64,000 nt of DNA, from the sequence record OZ335962.1, one strand, 5' to 3'. A program made the position numbers and the translations under genes. This document shows positions 33,365-46,571 of this stretch, one piece after another. This stretch comes from a phage. Within the stretch, counting starts at the first letter, position 1; every line of letters begins with the position of its first letter. The notes under the pieces are model-generated. The model searched no databases, was not told the DNA's origin, and saw nothing but the letters and a program-made list of their open reading frames with translations.

Positions 33365-33654
33365 TCAGTCTCCAATTTAATGTTCATAATTCTAGCGTAT
33401 GATTGTGCCATCTCCGCGCCTCGCTCTATACATTCAAAATCGGAAGAGCACGGGTCATTTTTATAAGTCGTTCGCATAAAACTATAGAACTGTTCAGATG
33501 ATTCTACGCTTTTATTTTCAAAAAGCATATAAACGTGTCTAATACCAGATTCCATAAATTTATCAAAATGAGGATCGACATTCGCTTCAATTGGTGGAGA
33601 TAAAGCAAACGCTAATCCTAGCATGGCAAATAGTGCCGTTGCTTTTAAGGCCAT
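33361..33654 (-). CDS. rI: lysis inhibition regulator rI
   Basis: 97 aa as in T4 RI; N-terminal signal-anchor MALKATALFAMLGLAFA; located upstream of tk as in T4. Confidence 0.8.
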   Translation of the reverse strand: MALKATALFAMLGLAFALSPPIEANVDPHFDKFMESGIRHVYMLFENKSVESSEQFYSFMRTTYKNDPCSSDFECIERGAEMAQSYARIMNIKLETE

Positions 33655-33666
33655 AAAGGCCTCCTA

Positions 33667-33879
33667 TCATTTTTGTCCTGTATTTACTTTATGCCGATGC
33701 ACGGCCTTAACTTTATCAAGGTATTTTTCAAAATTTCGCAATCTAGTATAGTCTGCCGGAGATTGGTTGAGTGATACTTCTCGACGCAAAGCTGAAATGA
33801 TATTTCCAACTTCCCTACGAATTTCATCTAATTGAAGAACAGTAAGATTGCGAAGTTGCTTTTCAGTTAATTGTAGCAT
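33667..33879 (-). CDS. hypothetical protein (rI.1 position)
   Basis: 70-aa ORF between tk and rI. Confidence 0.45.
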
Positions 33880-33921
33880 ATATACCCCTTTAGTTAGATA
33901 AACCTATTTATAACTTTTGCA

Positions 33922-34503
33922 CTAACCGAGCTTTTTAGTTAATTCATTCCAATGTTTTCTACACAAAGAAACATAAATTTCATCACCAATACAGATTTGA
34001 TTACCTTCTTTAACCGGTGTTCCATCTTCCATTAATCGAGCTGTCATAATAGCCTTTTTACCACAATGACAAACTGCCTTTAGTTCAATAAGTTTATCTG
34101 CAATCGCCAAAAGTTCTTTAGAACCTTCAAATAATTTTCCAGCGAAATCAGTCCTTAGTCCATAAGCCATAACAGGAACACTATATGTATCAACAATTCG
34201 GCTTAATTGATGCACCTGTTTAGTTTTTAAAAACTGGGCTTCATCTACAAATACACAATGAATATCTTTTTGTGCTTCAGCCCATTTATAGAACTCAAAA
34301 ATATCCATATCATCCGTAATAATATTCGCTTCCTGCTTAATTCCAATGCGAGAAACGACTTCACAGACAGAATCACGAGTATCAATAGCAGGCTTAAGAA
34401 CTAATACACCCATTCCGCGTTCTTTATAATTATGTGCAGCAGTCAAAAGAGAAGCAGATTTTCCAGCATTCATTGCTGCGTAAGTAAAAATTAAACTCGC
34501 CAT
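33922..34503 (-). CDS. tk: thymidine kinase
   Basis: 193 aa as in T4 Tk; P-loop NAGKSASLL and C-terminal zinc-binding cysteines. Confidence 0.9.
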   Translation of the reverse strand: MASLIFTYAAMNAGKSASLLTAAHNYKERGMGVLVLKPAIDTRDSVCEVVSRIGIKQEANIITDDMDIFEFYKWAEAQKDIHCVFVDEAQFLKTKQVHQLSRIVDTYSVPVMAYGLRTDFAGKLFEGSKELLAIADKLIELKAVCHCGKKAIMTARLMEDGTPVKEGNQICIGDEIYVSLCRKHWNELTKKLG

Positions 34504-34512
34504 ATCACCTTC

Positions 34513-34698
34513 TTAAAGCGTATTCACATAAGCTATTAATTCGTTTTCTTTCTTATCAAACCGATCAGCAAATTCTTCTTGCTGATCGGGAGATAGCGGG
34601 CCGTATTCATCATAAAAGGTGTTTGCTTCTGTATGCTCATCTAGAAGTTCATGGATAAGCTCAAACAATTTATCTTTTTGTTCTTTACTCAGACTCAT
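34513..34698 (-). CDS. hypothetical protein
   Basis: 61-aa acidic ORF. Confidence 0.4.
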   Translation of the reverse strand: MSLSKEQKDKLFELIHELLDEHTEANTFYDEYGPLSPDQQEEFADRFDKKENELIAYVNTL

Positions 34699-34868
34699 AT
34701 ATTAATTTCCAGGAGTTTTAAAATAATTCGCTTTTGCTTAAATATTTCCATAGTTAAATGACCAGTATCTTTTTGACCGATTCCAATGGCAAAACCTTTA
34801 TTGACAGCGAGTTCAATTAAATTATCAAGCTCACGTAACACTTCATATTGTAACTCAAAACTATTCAT
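34696..34868 (-). CDS. small protein (57 aa)
   Basis: Below track cutoff; start and stop overlap neighbours in ATGA-type coupling. Confidence 0.35.
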
Positions 34869-35092
34869 TTCGGTTTACCTTCTTTAACGAAATCGGGATA
34901 AGGATAAAATCCTGAATAAAATCCTTCACCTTTATGATTGATGCATCCTTTATTAGAACAATAGCACCAATAATCGAAATCACAAGCCATTTCATCATTA
35001 CATAAAGCAAAAACAACTGGCCATTCACACTTTTCGCAGTGGGCATTTTTAAGAATACTTGTTTGGCTCATAACCATGTAACCTTTAAACAA
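34865..35092 (-). CDS. cysteine-rich putative zinc-binding protein
   Basis: 75 aa with CxxC and multiple further cysteines. Confidence 0.45.
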   Translation of the reverse strand: MFKGYMVMSQTSILKNAHCEKCEWPVVFALCNDEMACDFDYWCYCSNKGCINHKGEGFYSGFYPYPDFVKEGKPK

Positions 35093-35280
35093 TATTCTTC
35101 TACGTGTTGTTTACGACCTTTCTTATCAATAAAGGTATATTCAACGAATGTTCCAATATAGTCTTTATCTACACCATGTGGACTATTAATTGGGCATTTA
35201 GTACGGCAAATGCGTTCCCATTGACGAATAATTTCCACTTTGTTTTTAGGATCAAACGGATGCGGGTAATGTACTTTCAT
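35068..35280 (-). CDS. hypothetical protein
   Basis: 70-aa ORF. Confidence 0.4.
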   Translation of the reverse strand: MKVHYPHPFDPKNKVEIIRQWERICRTKCPINSPHGVDKDYIGTFVEYTFIDKKGRKQHVEEYCLKVTWL

Positions 35281-35731
35281 AATCCATCACTATTAAATCA
35301 ATATCAGGAGTAAACATGTCGATTAATTTAGAAACCTTATCCCAATCGCCGCCAGCAATACCGCAACCTATACGTGGAATGTAAATTACTGGTTTAAACA
35401 AAAGGGTTTCTGCCTGTAGATTTAATTCTATCATGCAGTTTACTAAAGCACCATAATCAAGATTAGGACCCGGTTCGTATTGTGTATACAGGTTATAGCA
35501 TATACCAAATCCCGTAGGGCTATGTTTAAAAACAATAGACATATCGCCTAATTTATCACGAGAACCGTACTCGGTAGTGGTTTTATCTATTTCTAAAATT
35601 TTGGGATAGGCTCTTGCTAATTGACCCGCTACGCCAGAGCCCATTGTGTGGAAGCAATTGCACCCGTGCGCAATAATATTACCTTGAAGAAATAGGGCGA
35701 CAATATCGCCCTTGATATATTTTACAATCAT
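35252..35731 (-). CDS. macro-domain-like protein (putative ADP-ribose binding/hydrolase)
   Basis: 159 aa; glycine-rich motifs HTMGSGVAGQLARAYP and IPRIGCGIAGGDWD resemble macro-domain signatures (by eye only). Confidence 0.5.
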   Translation of the reverse strand: MIVKYIKGDIVALFLQGNIIAHGCNCFHTMGSGVAGQLARAYPKILEIDKTTTEYGSRDKLGDMSIVFKHSPTGFGICYNLYTQYEPGPNLDYGALVNCMIELNLQAETLLFKPVIYIPRIGCGIAGGDWDKVSKLIDMFTPDIDLIVMDYESTLPASV

Positions 35732-36075
35732 CTAGTACTCAATCCTCGATTATAAGAATCTACTAAACGGTCAACCATTGAATGACAAGCGGCTTTATCT
35801 TTCTCCTCCGCAACTGAACATTCTAAAGTATTCCACTTTTTAGCATATCGTTTTAACAATGTATCATTTTTGTATCTGCTTGATTTATCTCTTTCTCCGT
35901 CTTTATATGCATATATTAATTTCTGCGCAAATTCAGCTTGGCATGCTTTATTTTTCCCACAATAATCCGCGGCAGTACGGTTTACATACTCTCTAATTTC
36001 AGTATATGATGTATCTGCTAACGCAGAAGCAGAAAATGAAATTAATCCTATACATAAAACCAAAATTTTAGTCAT
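35728..36075 (-). CDS. vs: valyl-tRNA synthetase modifier Vs
   Basis: 115 aa as in T4 Vs; N-terminal signal peptide; position upstream of tk block. Confidence 0.6.
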   Translation of the reverse strand: MTKILVLCIGLISFSASALADTSYTEIREYVNRTAADYCGKNKACQAEFAQKLIYAYKDGERDKSSRYKNDTLLKRYAKKWNTLECSVAEEKDKAACHSMVDRLVDSYNRGLSTR

Positions 36076-36613
36076 TTACTATTTCCAAAAGTTTATTATT
36101 TTTAAGGTAATTAGCCTTTTCTAGGACTTCAGAAGCATATTTAGAACCTGCTTTAACATTCCATCCCGAATTATAAGAGGATATCGCCTTTCTTATATCG
36201 CCCTTATGTATATTTAACCAATAAGAAAGTTCAATGTACGCCCAGGAAGCTGAATTGGACCGTTTATTCAACATTCTTTTTATTTCAGCATCGGTCATAT
36301 TATAACCAAGTTCCTTAACTCTTGCTCGCATAGTAGGCAAATAATTTTGGAACATTCCATAGGCATGATGCTTTGGTTTAGATTTTAAATTAACTCCGGC
36401 AGAGCTTTCTTGCCATAAAATAGCAGCCATTATATGACCTAATCCGCTCTTGTGGATATTTTTGTGTGTTTTATATTTTCCATCCTTAGAAAATTGTTCC
36501 CCGAATTGATACGCGTAACGCATGTTATCGAGTTGGACATTACTGAAAGTATGCTCGGAGCTATGCGCCATCATTGAAATGGCCAATAGACCAGCGAGTA
36601 GTGCTTTTCTCAT
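36068..36613 (-). CDS. lytic transglycosylase-like protein
   Basis: 181 aa with signal peptide and Slt-type motifs (ES...GMFQ...YN); T4 vs.1 position. Confidence 0.6.
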   Translation of the reverse strand: MRKALLAGLLAISMMAHSSEHTFSNVQLDNMRYAYQFGEQFSKDGKYKTHKNIHKSGLGHIMAAILWQESSAGVNLKSKPKHHAYGMFQNYLPTMRARVKELGYNMTDAEIKRMLNKRSNSASWAYIELSYWLNIHKGDIRKAISSYNSGWNVKAGSKYASEVLEKANYLKNNKLLEIVND

Positions 36614-36620
36614 GCTTACC

Positions 36621-37082
36621 TCATTGAGTTTTAATTACTGCTTTAGAAGCCTTTCCTGGTAAACGACGACTGTTGATAATTGCCATCCTGCATTGAAGCG
36701 ACGGGTCTTTGAACTTCGCATTAGGTTTACAAACTGTAAATCCAAGCCAAAGATTTCCATCTGTGATTTCTAAACGTCCAGGACGGTATTCAACCCCATC
36801 AATAAAATCCTCATCAATGTCAGGACGCGGAGGCATACTCAGGAATTCATTAACTTCTAAAACATGGTCTTTTATTTTGTGGAATAATTCAAAAACATAT
36901 GTCTCATCAATCTCCCGTTGAATTGCACGATCAAGAAGATGCTGAGAATATTTTAGATGAAACGATGAGACCCCTGCTGCTTTTGATGCCTCACGAATCT
37001 CATTGTTAATTTGACGAAACTCCGACTCAAAGTGACGACGAAGCTTATTTCGACGGATAAAAACTTCTGTGTTGATAGTCAT
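36621..37082 (-). CDS. regB: RegB site-specific endoribonuclease
   Basis: 153 aa as in T4 RegB; own early promoter with TGGTATAAT extended -10 directly upstream. Confidence 0.8.
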   Translation of the reverse strand: MTINTEVFIRRNKLRRHFESEFRQINNEIREASKAAGVSSFHLKYSQHLLDRAIQREIDETYVFELFHKIKDHVLEVNEFLSMPPRPDIDEDFIDGVEYRPGRLEITDGNLWLGFTVCKPNAKFKDPSLQCRMAIINSRRLPGKASKAVIKTQ

Positions 37083-37109
37083 GTTATTCTCCTCTTAACT
37101 GATAGAAAA

Positions 37110-37139
37110 ATTATACCACAGTCAAGAGGAAAAGTAAAC
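37110..37139 (-). promoter_or_regulatory. early promoter of regB
   Basis: GTTTAC -35, 18 bp, TGGTATAAT consensus extended -10, 28 bp upstream of regB ATG. Confidence 0.65.
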
Positions 37140-37141
37140 AG

Positions 37142-37420
37142 TTATTCTTTAAATCTAATCAATTTATTCATAGACTTTGAAACTTCTGCACGGACCTCAT
37201 GTAGGTTTTTAAGCTGTTCAAGACGCTGCTCATAGTAAGCAATTTCATCTTCTTCGAGACAGTCCTGTGAATCTTCTTTAAGATAACGTGCATAGTCCTG
37301 GAAAGCTTTACGGACTACTTCTTGGAAGTCATCAAGACTTTGAATTTTCTTAGGAGCAACAGATACACGACGAGGGGCAGTATAATACTCATAACCAAAC
37401 CCTGCGCTTAATTGAGCCAT
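37142..37420 (-). CDS. hypothetical protein
   Basis: Likely start ATG 37420 ([13 protein letters not shown]...) with GAGGAAA RBS. Confidence 0.45.
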
Positions 37421-37686
37421 TAATATTTTTCCTCTGGTTGGAACACAGCACGACAAGCCCACATACTAGCTTCTTTGAGTTTCGTTTTAGCAATAGTTAA
37501 CTGATCGAGGCTTTCAGCATAATTCTTTGCGAATTCGTAGTCTTCACAATTATCTAGTGCTTCCCAGAATTCATCATATAAAGCGTCAAAGATAAGTCCT
37601 AAACGAACTTCAGCGTCTTTGATAGCATTCACTTTATCGATTTTCTCTTCAGTGTGCGGCTTATAACCTTTAATATCTTCAATCAT
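37420..37686 (-). CDS. hypothetical protein
   Basis: Likely start ATG 37686 with GAGGAAG RBS. Confidence 0.45.
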
Positions 37687-37900
37687 ATTTGACTTCCTCG
37701 CCCGTTCCCAAATCATATTCAACTAAACGAATAGGTTCATGAATGCCATATCCCTGAACAGAAATTTCTGTCGTAGGATAAATTCCACTAATATCACCCA
37801 TATTCCACGCTTCATTAAATTGCTGTTCGCCTGAATTACTAAACCATTCTGCGAAAGCATTTAACACATCTTTAGAACCTTCAATAATTATCTTTGCCAT
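37679..37900 (-). CDS. hypothetical protein
   Basis: 73-aa ORF immediately downstream of the glycyl-radical cofactor gene. Confidence 0.45.
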   Translation of the reverse strand: MAKIIIEGSKDVLNAFAEWFSNSGEQQFNEAWNMGDISGIYPTTEISVQGYGIHEPIRLVEYDLGTGEEVKYD

Positions 37901-38262
37901 TACAAGCTCTCAGTAAAGGTACGAGCGATAACGTCGCGCTGCTGTTCCGGAGTCAGAGAGTTAAAGCGAACTGCATAACCGGATACACGGATGGTCAGCT
38001 GCGGATATTTTTCCGGATGCTTAACTGCATCTTCCAGAGTTTCACGACGCAGAACGTTAACGTTCAGGTGTTGACCACCCTCAATTTTAACTGTAGGTTG
38101 TGTTTCAATTTCAATTTCACGGGCATGCAAACCATAGAAAATTTCTGGGTCTACAAAAGAGTCCTCTTTAAAGGTTTTAGAGACAATAATTCGTGCTTGA
38201 ATACCATCTTCAAAATAAATAGTACCTCTATGTGTGCCTTCAAGAATTTGATATGCTTTCAT
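37900..38262 (-). CDS. autonomous glycyl radical cofactor (GrcA/YfiD-like)
   Basis: 120 aa; C-terminal glycyl radical motif [15 protein letters not shown]; T4 is known to encode a YfiD-like spare-part protein. Confidence 0.8.
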
Positions 38263-38268
38263 ATAACC

Positions 38269-38598
38269 TCAATTAGAAAATAAATTTATCCAAGATTGTT
38301 CTTTAATTAAAAATGGCTCAGAATCATATGCCATTAAACTTTGTGTGATTAGTCCTTTAAAAGGCCCATCAATAAATTCCATAGTAAAATATGGAATTTT
38401 ATTCATTAGTCGTGCATTAGGAGCAGTGCACAAAACTCTGCATCCTTTGAATACGCCTTTTTGTAATTTGTACTGCTTAGGATAAAATTCGCTCAAGACG
38501 TTATTATTTGCCAAAATTTCAAAATGATTCACCAACTTATTTTTAATAGTTTTTGGTGAAAAATAAAGATATTCGAAAAGCTGTGTGTCTGTCATCAT
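38269..38598 (-). CDS. hypothetical protein
   Basis: ORF with probable internal ATG start (MMTDTQLF...). Confidence 0.4.
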   Translation of the reverse strand: MMTDTQLFEYLYFSPKTIKNKLVNHFEILANNNVLSEFYPKQYKLQKGVFKGCRVLCTAPNARLMNKIPYFTMEFIDGPFKGLITQSLMAYDSEPFLIKEQSWINLFSN

Positions 38599-45743: not shown

Positions 45744-45819
45744 TGGTCGAGGCAGTAGGGATCGAACCTACGACCCAGGACTTAGAAGGTCCTTGCTCTT
45801 CCTTCTGAGCTATGCCTCG
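45744..45819 (-). tRNA. tRNA-Arg (anticodon UCU)
   Basis: 76-nt cloverleaf folded by eye: anticodon loop CTTCTAA, T-loop TTCGATC, CCA encoded. Confidence 0.9.
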
Positions 45820-45823
45820 GATT

Positions 45824-45898
45824 TGGCGGACGTGATAGGATTCGAACCTATAACCAATCGCTTAACAGGCGATCGCTCTGCCATTGAGCTACACATCC
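45824..45898 (-). tRNA. tRNA-Asn (anticodon GUU)
   Basis: 75-nt cloverleaf: acceptor GGATGTG/CACGTCC, anticodon stem ATCGC/GCGAT, loop CTGTTAA, T-loop TTCGAAT, CCA encoded. Confidence 0.8.
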
Positions 45899-45902
45899 AA
45901 AT

Positions 45903-45989
45903 TGGTGGGGAGTGATGGAGTCGAACCACCCGAGTCGCAATGACAATGGATTTACAGTCCACACCGCTACCTCTACGGGATAACTCCCC
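45903..45989 (-). tRNA. tRNA-Tyr (anticodon GUA), class II
   Basis: 87 nt: acceptor GGGGAGT/ACTCCCC, anticodon loop CTGTAAA, long variable arm, T-loop TTCGACT, CCA encoded. Confidence 0.75.
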
Positions 45990-45998
45990 AAATTAATT

Positions 45999-46073
45999 TG
46001 GTGGCCCTGGGTGGAATTGAACCACCATCTGGCGATTATGAGTCGCTTGCTTGAACCTTCCAGCTACAGGGCC
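45999..46073 (-). tRNA. tRNA-Ile (anticodon CAU, AUA-reading type)
   Basis: Matches recalled T4 tRNA-Ile (GGCCCTGTAGCTGGAAGG...CTCATAATCG...). Confidence 0.9.
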
Positions 46074-46074
46074 T

Positions 46075-46150
46075 TGGTGCTGATTGACGGAATCGAACCG
46101 CCGACCTTCTCATTACAAGTGAGTTGCTCTACCTACTGAGCTAAATCAGC
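46075..46150 (-). tRNA. tRNA-Thr (anticodon UGU)
   Basis: Matches recalled T4 tRNA-Thr (GCTGATTTAGCTCAGTAGG...). Confidence 0.92.
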
Positions 46151-46155
46151 AAAAC

Positions 46156-46245
46156 TGGCGGAGGCGATAGGATTTGAACCTATGAGTCGCCGGAGCGACT
46201 GCCGGTTTTCAAGACCGGTGCATTAAACCACTCTGCCACGCCTCC
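46156..46245 (-). tRNA. tRNA-Ser (anticodon UGA), class II
   Basis: 90 nt with long variable arm; anticodon loop CTTGAAA. Confidence 0.88.
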
Positions 46246-46247
46246 AG

Positions 46248-46321
46248 TCTCCATACAAGGATTTGAACCTTGGACCTCCTGATCCCAAATCAGGCGCTCT
46301 ACCAAACTGAGCTACACGGAG
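46248..46321 (-). tRNA. tRNA-Pro (anticodon UGG)
   Basis: Matches recalled T4 tRNA-Pro; anticodon loop TTTGGGA; 3' CCA not encoded. Confidence 0.88.
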
Positions 46322-46331
46322 TAAATTAAAT

Positions 46332-46405
<74 letters not shown>

Positions 46406-46410
46406 AAATT

Positions 46411-46497
46411 TGGTGCGAGAAGTGGGACTCGAACCCACAAGGAAATCATTCCGCAGCATTTTAAGTGCTGTGCCTTTACCAATTTGACCATTCTCGC
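46411..46497 (-). tRNA. tRNA-Leu (anticodon UAA), class II
   Basis: Matches recalled T4 tRNA-Leu (GCGAGAATGGTCAAATTGG...). Confidence 0.92.
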
Positions 46498-46498
46498 G

Positions 46499-46571
46499 CT
46501 GGGAATAAAGGACTCGAACCTTTGCATCCTGGAATCAAAATCCAGTGCCTTACCAACTTGGCTAATTCCCA
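46499..46571 (-). tRNA. tRNA-Gln (anticodon UUG)
   Basis: Cloverleaf with anticodon loop TTTTGAT; abuts tRNA-Leu as a dimeric precursor; CCA not fully encoded. Confidence 0.88.

Follow-up and report, generated by a model that had tools for sequence, protein, structure and literature searches.

The tk.4 gene and its neighbourhood

The 64-kb window, i.e., the whole stretch of phage DNA that we have analysed, belongs to a Tequatrovirus (T4-like phage). The ORF studied here (35252..35731, minus strand) runs from an ATG to a stop codon and encodes a 159-aa protein with a single macrodomain, as judged from the reading frame, a Pfam match, synteny, and an AF2 model. The 2.2 kb around it are 99.0–99.6% identical to many Tequatrovirus phages of Escherichia, Shigella, and Yersinia. 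The record of the 99.6%-identical Shigella phage vB_SsoM_113 labels the same ORF tk.4, within the gene order tk - tk.2 - two small ORFs - tk.3 - tk.4 - vs - vs.1 - regB. In T4, too, tk.4 lies between vs and tk.3, with the annotation "phosphatase; contains A1pp phosphatase motif", and the A1pp (macro) match of tk.4 orthologues has been on record since 2006 (PMC1524935). We identify the ORF as tk.4 (adfM) of a T4-like phage. A preliminary description of this DNA had already reported the 159-aa ORF, without giving its strand, and assigned it to the tk-vs block; both the reading frame and the placement proved correct.

The start codon of tk.4 overlaps the stop codon of vs in an ATGA sequence (35728..35731, minus strand, from the ORF coordinates and the sequence), which probably couples the translation of both genes. 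At its other end, tk.4 overlaps the start of tk.3 by 29 nt (35252..35280, minus strand), versus 4 nt in T4, and this allele has a 4-aa C-terminal extension. The tk.4 gene is real, since tblastn finds matches in 2784 phage records, its dN/dS is 0.07 (see below), it shares the ATGA overlap with vs, and its N-terminal 29 residues hold G8, H22, G23, N25, and C26, which are invariant in the family. Some records place the start at Met30, giving a product of 130 aa (P0002) that has lost the invariant H22-N25 motif, and several deposited records (OQ446694 Killian, OR125554 BW-1, and others) carry wrong labels in this block, e.g., "MazF family toxin-antitoxin", "tail fibers protein", and "ABC transporter ATP-binding protein".

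A promoter and terminator scan of positions 33500-38500 returned 17 promoter-like sites versus 19.8 expected from shuffled sequences; with no such excess, we make no claim for a dedicated tk.4 promoter. The best promoter-like site of the scan lies upstream of regB. An 8-bp GC-rich hairpin (AGGGCGATATTGTCGCCCT; 35694-35712, minus strand) spans codons 7-13 of tk.4 and is 100% conserved in T4. The scan flagged it as terminator-like, and the surrounding 91 nt fold no better than their shuffles (z = -1.0).

Several other features of the window differ from T4 or deserve mention. The tk.1 gene of T4 is absent, and the region 34695-35092 (minus strand) holds instead two small ORFs homologous to RB32ORF110c and 111c; the second one, rich in cysteines (CEKCEW...CNDEMACDFDYWCYCSNKGCINH), may encode a small zinc-binding protein. 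A cluster of 10 tRNA genes (45744-46571, minus strand) comprises Gln, Leu, Gly, Pro, Ser, Thr, Met/Ile(CAT), Tyr, Asn, and Arg. T4 has 8 tRNAs, and tRNA-Tyr and tRNA-Asn would be the extra ones in the window. The vs (35728-36075) and vs.1 (36068-36613) genes, both on the minus strand, encode proteins with Sec-signal-peptide-like starts (MTKILVLCIGLISFSASALA in Vs and MRKALLAGLLAISMMAHS in Vs.1). Such a start suits Vs.1, a protein with an SLT transglycosylase match, and is odd for Vs, the "valyl-tRNA synthetase modifier". In T4, vs is the strongest minimal-medium-specific fitness gene (HIDEN-SEQ, 10.1101/2025.11.20.689424).

Macrodomain fold and active site

The macro domain anticipated in the preliminary description is borne out. 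Tk.4 matches Pfam Macro PF01661 above its gathering score (E = 1.3e-7, 32 bits versus 22, profile positions 2-117 of 118) and PHROG 335 (E = 5.7e-71), and its sequence matches in the PDB are BT1257 (2AFC/2FG1), yeast Poa1p, SCO6735, DarG, and TARG1, so that the similarity to macrodomains is far beyond chance. A family profile built from 46 homologues finds BT1257 (1.8e-18), TARG1 (1.4e-17), SCO6735 (2.6e-15), and DarG (2.7e-12), its PDB matches spanning E = 1.8e-18 to 3.4e-10. The AF2 model obtained from the 46-sequence alignment, in which P0015 (86% identical to T4 Tk.4) stands for the T4 type, reaches a pLDDT of 94.6 and a pTM of 0.89, and we have discarded in its favour the model from the single sequence (pLDDT 34.4). 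The three-layer alpha/beta/alpha fold of macrodomains is present. The tk.4 product is a stand-alone ALC1-like macrodomain, of the class of TARG1, DarG, SCO6735/BT1257, and Poa1p, clearly apart from the MacroD, viral nsp3, and PARG types. It resembles yeast Poa1p (ADP-ribose-1''-phosphate phosphatase) in sequence and fold, the sequence similarity being as strong as that to SCO6735.

Residue conservation was counted in 118 homologues of the window protein. The HGCNC motif (residues 22-26; 35654..35668, minus strand) contains His22 and Asn25, the equivalents of SCO6735 His24 and Asn27; H22, G23, N25, and C26 are invariant (118/118), and BT1257 aligns "HICN" there. The two glycine-rich motifs that the preliminary description had likened to ADP-ribose-binding loops can be read directly from the sequence, and they would form the two loops that hold ADP-ribose by its diphosphate and distal ribose. 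According to the alignments, motif 1, HTMGSGVAGQLARAYP (residues 28-43; 35603..35650, minus strand), corresponds to the first glycine-rich substrate-binding loop plus helix 1, with G33 and A35 invariant and M30 and G31 nearly so, the aligned stretch of TARG1 being "CRMGAGIAVLF". Motif 2, IPRIGCGIAGGDWD (residues 118-131; 35339..35380, minus strand), corresponds to the phosphate-binding loop, keeps P119, G122, G124, and W130 in 117-118 of the 118 homologues, and aligns with "PRIGCGLAGGKW" of BT1257 and "PRIGCGLDRLQW" of TARG1. The loop glycines Gly33, Gly122, and Gly124 are likewise kept in 117-118 of the 118, and in the alignments the nearly invariant stretches M30-G31-S32-G33 and G122-C-G124-I-A-G-G128 fall on the corresponding loops of BT1257 and TARG1. 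The NLYTQ motif (residues 80-84; 35480..35494, minus strand) ends in Gln84, present in all the homologues (118/118) and located at the position of TARG1 Lys84, DarG Lys80, and SCO6735 Gln85; the HMM alignments set nlYtq against YLITK of TARG1 and NMIGQ of BT1257.

Tk.4 does not have the catalytic dyad of human TARG1/OARD1 (Lys84/Asp125; PDB 4J5R/4J5S), since Gln84 aligns with the Lys and Ala126 occupies the position of the Asp. In SCO6735, Gln85 takes the structural place of TARG1 Lys84 and DarG Lys80; the Q85A or Q85E changes abolish the cleavage of thymidine-linked ADP-ribose, Asn27 holds Gln85 in place, the N27S variant is nearly inactive, and a water-mediated mechanism has been proposed (PMC9411070). 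This arrangement of a Gln held by an Asn is found in Tk.4, where Q84 and N25 are invariant, and the aligned BT1257 has Gln and Asn as well. As read from the sequence, the active site of Tk.4 is of the SCO6735 type, with Gln84 and Asn25 in place of the Lys of DarG and TARG1.

SCO6735 from Streptomyces coelicolor (PDB 5E3B) and BT1257 from Bacteroides (2FG1/2AFC), which are the best sequence and fold matches of the window protein, are orphan macrodomains of the ALC1-like class, and they remove thymidine-linked ADP-ribose from DNA (PMC9411070). Tk.4 resembles them in being a stand-alone domain of ~160 aa, in having Gln for the catalytic Lys with the supporting Asn and His kept, and in its phosphate loop of the GCG[IL]AGG.W type. 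In contrast, the identity is ~29%, Tk.4 is phage-encoded and probably serves counter-defence and not the self-protection of a host, and the Tk.4 family does not have the mobile-loop extension of ~5 residues that is the hallmark of the SCO6735/BT1257 subclass (PMC9411070). The mobile loop of Tk.4 is not 5 residues longer than that of DarG and TARG1: the family profile has a 6-column gap against BT1257 right after the Gln, and the single-sequence alignment gaps there too. The Tk.4 family, by these alignments, appears to combine the SCO6735 catalytic residues with the short DarG/TARG1 loop. Because the Lys, the Asp, and the longer mobile loop are missing, the mechanism of neither model enzyme can simply be transferred to Tk.4.

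DarG was the sole PADLOC match (model positions 3-144 of 329), and the DarG model NF048014 was the best of three NCBIfam matches, with 27.7 bits versus a cut-off of 250. This match spans positions 2-143 of 338, the macrodomain end, and the C-terminal DarT-binding domain of DarG is absent from the 159-aa window protein, which therefore does not show the two-domain architecture of DarG above the equivalog cut-off. In addition, DarG (DarG2; PDB 5M3I, 5M3E, 7OMU) has Lys80 where Tk.4 has Gln, and tk.4 adjoins vs and tk.3 and no darT gene. Membership in the DarG family is ruled out by the architecture, the absent catalytic Lys, and the lack of a darT neighbour.

A Dhakavirus-type allele in T4-like flanks

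T4 Tk.4, or AdfM (anti-DarT factor Macrodomain; NP_049723), is encoded in the same slot and orientation as the window protein and is homologous to it over its full length (155 aa in T4 versus 159 aa here; 57% identity over 155 aa, E = 3e-70). Both proteins begin with the same 14 residues and contain H22, N25, and Q84. The phosphate loop follows the family consensus in the window protein (IGCGIAGGDW) and deviates from it in T4 (IGAGIGKGNW). The 60-nt windows of a blastn alignment to T4 delimit a divergent allelic cassette (35247..35693), where nucleotide identity to T4 is 45-78%, versus 97-100% in vs, vs.1, and regB and 85-97% in tk.3. The divergence starts right after codon 13 of tk.4, directly past the conserved hairpin.

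Per-gene protein identities, computed against T4, G8, JS98, and UGJNEcP4, point in the same direction. The products of tk, vs, vs.1, and regB are 98-99% identical to those of T4 and 45-70% to those of Dhakavirus JS98, whereas Tk.4 is 57% identical to T4 and 92% to JS98. The tk.2 gene (34513-34698, minus strand) is a second mosaic gene of the block, its product being 54% identical to T4 and 89% to JS98, next to a tk gene 98% identical to that of T4. In this phage, tk.4 is a sharply bounded swapped cassette, a Dhakavirus-type allele in T4-like flanks. Compared with the JS98 allele, the dN/dS is 0.07 at a dS of 0.68, revealing purifying selection; thus, the gene is functional, and JS98 itself has not been its recent donor. 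In the phage collection, this allele (≥90% identity) is present in ~313 records and intermediate alleles (60-90%) in ~97, while the band below 60% holds 2374 records from phages of all kinds, T4-type alleles (~57%) included. The exchange of an anti-defence cassette fits an arms race, and it is also ordinary for plastic regions of T4-like genomes.

The 2784 phage records with homologues include, among other groups, T4-like, FelixO1-like, Vi1/Cba120-like, and rV5-like phages and Pseudomonas Pakpunavirus. A bacterial homologue, from Pelagimonas, is an orphan among housekeeping genes with no DarT adjoining, as is the case for SCO6735. We have not retained the idea that the family arose from the antitoxin gene of a DarT operon in bacteria: the only bacterial locus inspected is this orphan, although a single locus is not decisive. 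An unrelated phage contig of 110-200 kb encodes a Tk.4-family macrodomain ~4.5 kb downstream of an Acb5 (PF26761) anti-CBASS gene (L008 1541-1888 and 6001-6447, and the same in L010). A gene for an AAA/nSTAND-like NTPase is located nearby, and the locus may be an anti-defence neighbourhood.

Proposed role of Tk.4 against DarTG2

The anti-defence function suggested in the preliminary description finds support in T4. When a T4 transposon library was analysed by HIDEN-SEQ on a DarTG2 host, a significant result was obtained for tk.4 alone, and its clean deletion rendered T4 sensitive to DarTG2, for which the gene was renamed adfM; on plain K-12, T4 can do without the gene, which becomes necessary only with DarTG2 (10.1101/2025.11.20.689424). 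The authors propose the enzymatic removal of ADP-ribose from DNA, with genetic support from this one 2025 preprint (10.1101/2025.11.20.689424). T4 lacking adfA and adfN was still resistant to DarTG2, and further factors had been predicted (PMC11825919), a gap that the tk.4 result fills. The anti-defence role of tk.4 is, thus, already published, and the present analysis adds refinements to it. DarTG2 protection is known for the T4 allele only, and by analogy the 57%-identical allele described here probably has the same activity and target.

Phages of other lineages also encode counters to DarT-type DNA ADP-ribosylation, i.e., PhiKZ gp104 "AdfM" and other chimallivirus DarG2-like macrodomains (PMC13309987) and AdfB of ICP1 (PMC11481870). 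In biochemical assays PhiKZ AdfM, a protein imported into the phage nucleus, frees DarT2-modified DNA from its ADP-ribose, an activity that needs the conserved Asn, and the protein protects against DarTG2 (PMC13309987). The name AdfM arose independently in two papers, for T4 Tk.4 and for PhiKZ gp104, and we pair both proteins by function, not by sequence. Among the characterised relatives, SCO6735 is the closest in sequence; it relieves the toxicity of DarT, and in vitro its cleavage of thymidine-ADP-ribose outpaces that by DarG or TARG1 (PMC9411070).

The reading that we favour, to which we give a probability of about 70% by analogy with these enzymes, is that Tk.4 is a SCO6735-type, lysine-independent DNA ADP-ribosyl-glycohydrolase countering DarTG2. 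As part of the regB-vs-tk transcription unit, its gene would be expressed early in infection. The host toxin DarT2 of the DarTG2 defence ADP-ribosylates thymidines of single-stranded phage DNA, and Tk.4 would strip this thymidine-linked ADP-ribose, so that replication of the phage DNA could proceed. Gln84, held by Asn25, would position the distal ribose, and with no catalytic Lys or Asp at hand we propose that hydrolysis takes place via an activated water and not through a lysine nucleophile. The invariance of Gln84, Asn25, His22, and the glycine loops in the 118 homologues suggests selection on catalysis or ADP-ribose binding. The purifying selection on the gene and the Acb5 gene near a homologue also count in favour of this reading. 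Against it count the absence of the catalytic Lys, of the TARG1 Asp, of the longer mobile loop, and of the DarT-binding domain, as well as the similarity to Poa1p.

Since Tk.4 is as similar to Poa1p as to SCO6735, it might instead be a small-molecule enzyme, either an Appr-1''-p phosphatase (Poa1p-like) or an O-acetyl-ADP-ribose deacetylase (YmdB/MacroD-like), processing NAD-derived metabolites and not DNA adducts. We consider such an enzyme quite improbable, and there is correspondingly little chance that the historical "phosphatase" annotation, compatible as it remains with the Poa1p similarity, describes the activity. That name was transferred from the A1pp domain match and not from an assay, and the NCBIfam model for O-acetyl-ADP-ribose deacetylase reaches only 15.7 bits versus a cut-off of 291. 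To our knowledge, no Tpt1-type pathway yielding Appr-1''-p is known in T4-like phages, which also counts against a metabolic substrate. Moreover, the effect of the knock-out in T4 is confined to DarTG2 (10.1101/2025.11.20.689424). It seems equally doubtful that the protein acts not on DNA but on proteins or RNA, removing ADP-ribose from them, the marks being left by phage Alt, ModA, or ModB or by a host defence that targets proteins or RNA. T4-like phages encode three ADP-ribosyltransferases, which would provide such marks, but the Alt and Mod enzymes modify arginine, and we know of no macrodomain that cleaves that linkage. TARG1 and SCO6735 do act on protein-linked ADP-ribose too (PMC9411070); however, tk.4 is needed by T4 only when DarTG2 is present (10.1101/2025.11.20.689424), and T-even phages are still sensitive to CmdTAC, an mRNA ADP-ribosyltransferase (PMC11618068).

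Tk.4 could also act as an antitoxin mimic, neutralising DarT2 mainly by binding, with hydrolysis secondary or absent, in which case the divergent alleles would be matched to different variants of DarT2. The catalytically dead Q85A variant of SCO6735 still inhibits DarT, more than the mutants of DarG or TARG1 do (PMC9411070), the sharply bounded cassette has been exchanged between genera within flanks 97-100% identical to T4, and the differences between alleles in the alignments concentrate outside the active-site motifs. Yet the active-site residues and glycine loops are invariant in the 118 homologues, the DarT-binding domain of DarG is missing, and the activity of PhiKZ AdfM depends on its conserved Asn (PMC13309987), for which we regard neutralisation by binding as improbable. 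The degradation or sequestration of an ADP-ribose-derived immune signal (e.g., gcADPR of Thoeris), or some other way of countering NAD-depleting defences, has hardly any likelihood, given that the corresponding fold match is much weaker than those of the DarG/SCO6735/TARG1 group and that DarTG2 is behind the sole conditional phenotype reported for T4 tk.4 (10.1101/2025.11.20.689424).

A bolder version of the DarTG2 reading holds that Tk.4/AdfM is a hot-swappable counter-defence cassette whose alleles are not interchangeable and differ in target range, with a third type of ALC1-like active site; we think this rather unlikely. If it were so, the Dhakavirus-type allele might counter other DarT2 variants by direct recognition of the toxin or, alternatively, it might act on another nucleic-acid ADP-ribosylation.

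What this analysis adds to the literature examined is the lysine-free, SCO6735-like active site of Tk.4 and the exchange of the cassette between the Tequatrovirus and Dhakavirus lineages. Owing to this exchange, allele swaps offer an easy way to ask whether the specificity of the counter-defence varies. In hundreds of Tequatrovirus records, the labels "phosphatase" or "hypothetical" should be replaced by "AdfM-like macrodomain, probable anti-DarTG2". The erasure of DNA ADP-ribosylation by phage macrodomains has recently come to be recognised as a form of counter-defence, and it would explain the resistance of T-even phages to DarTG2.
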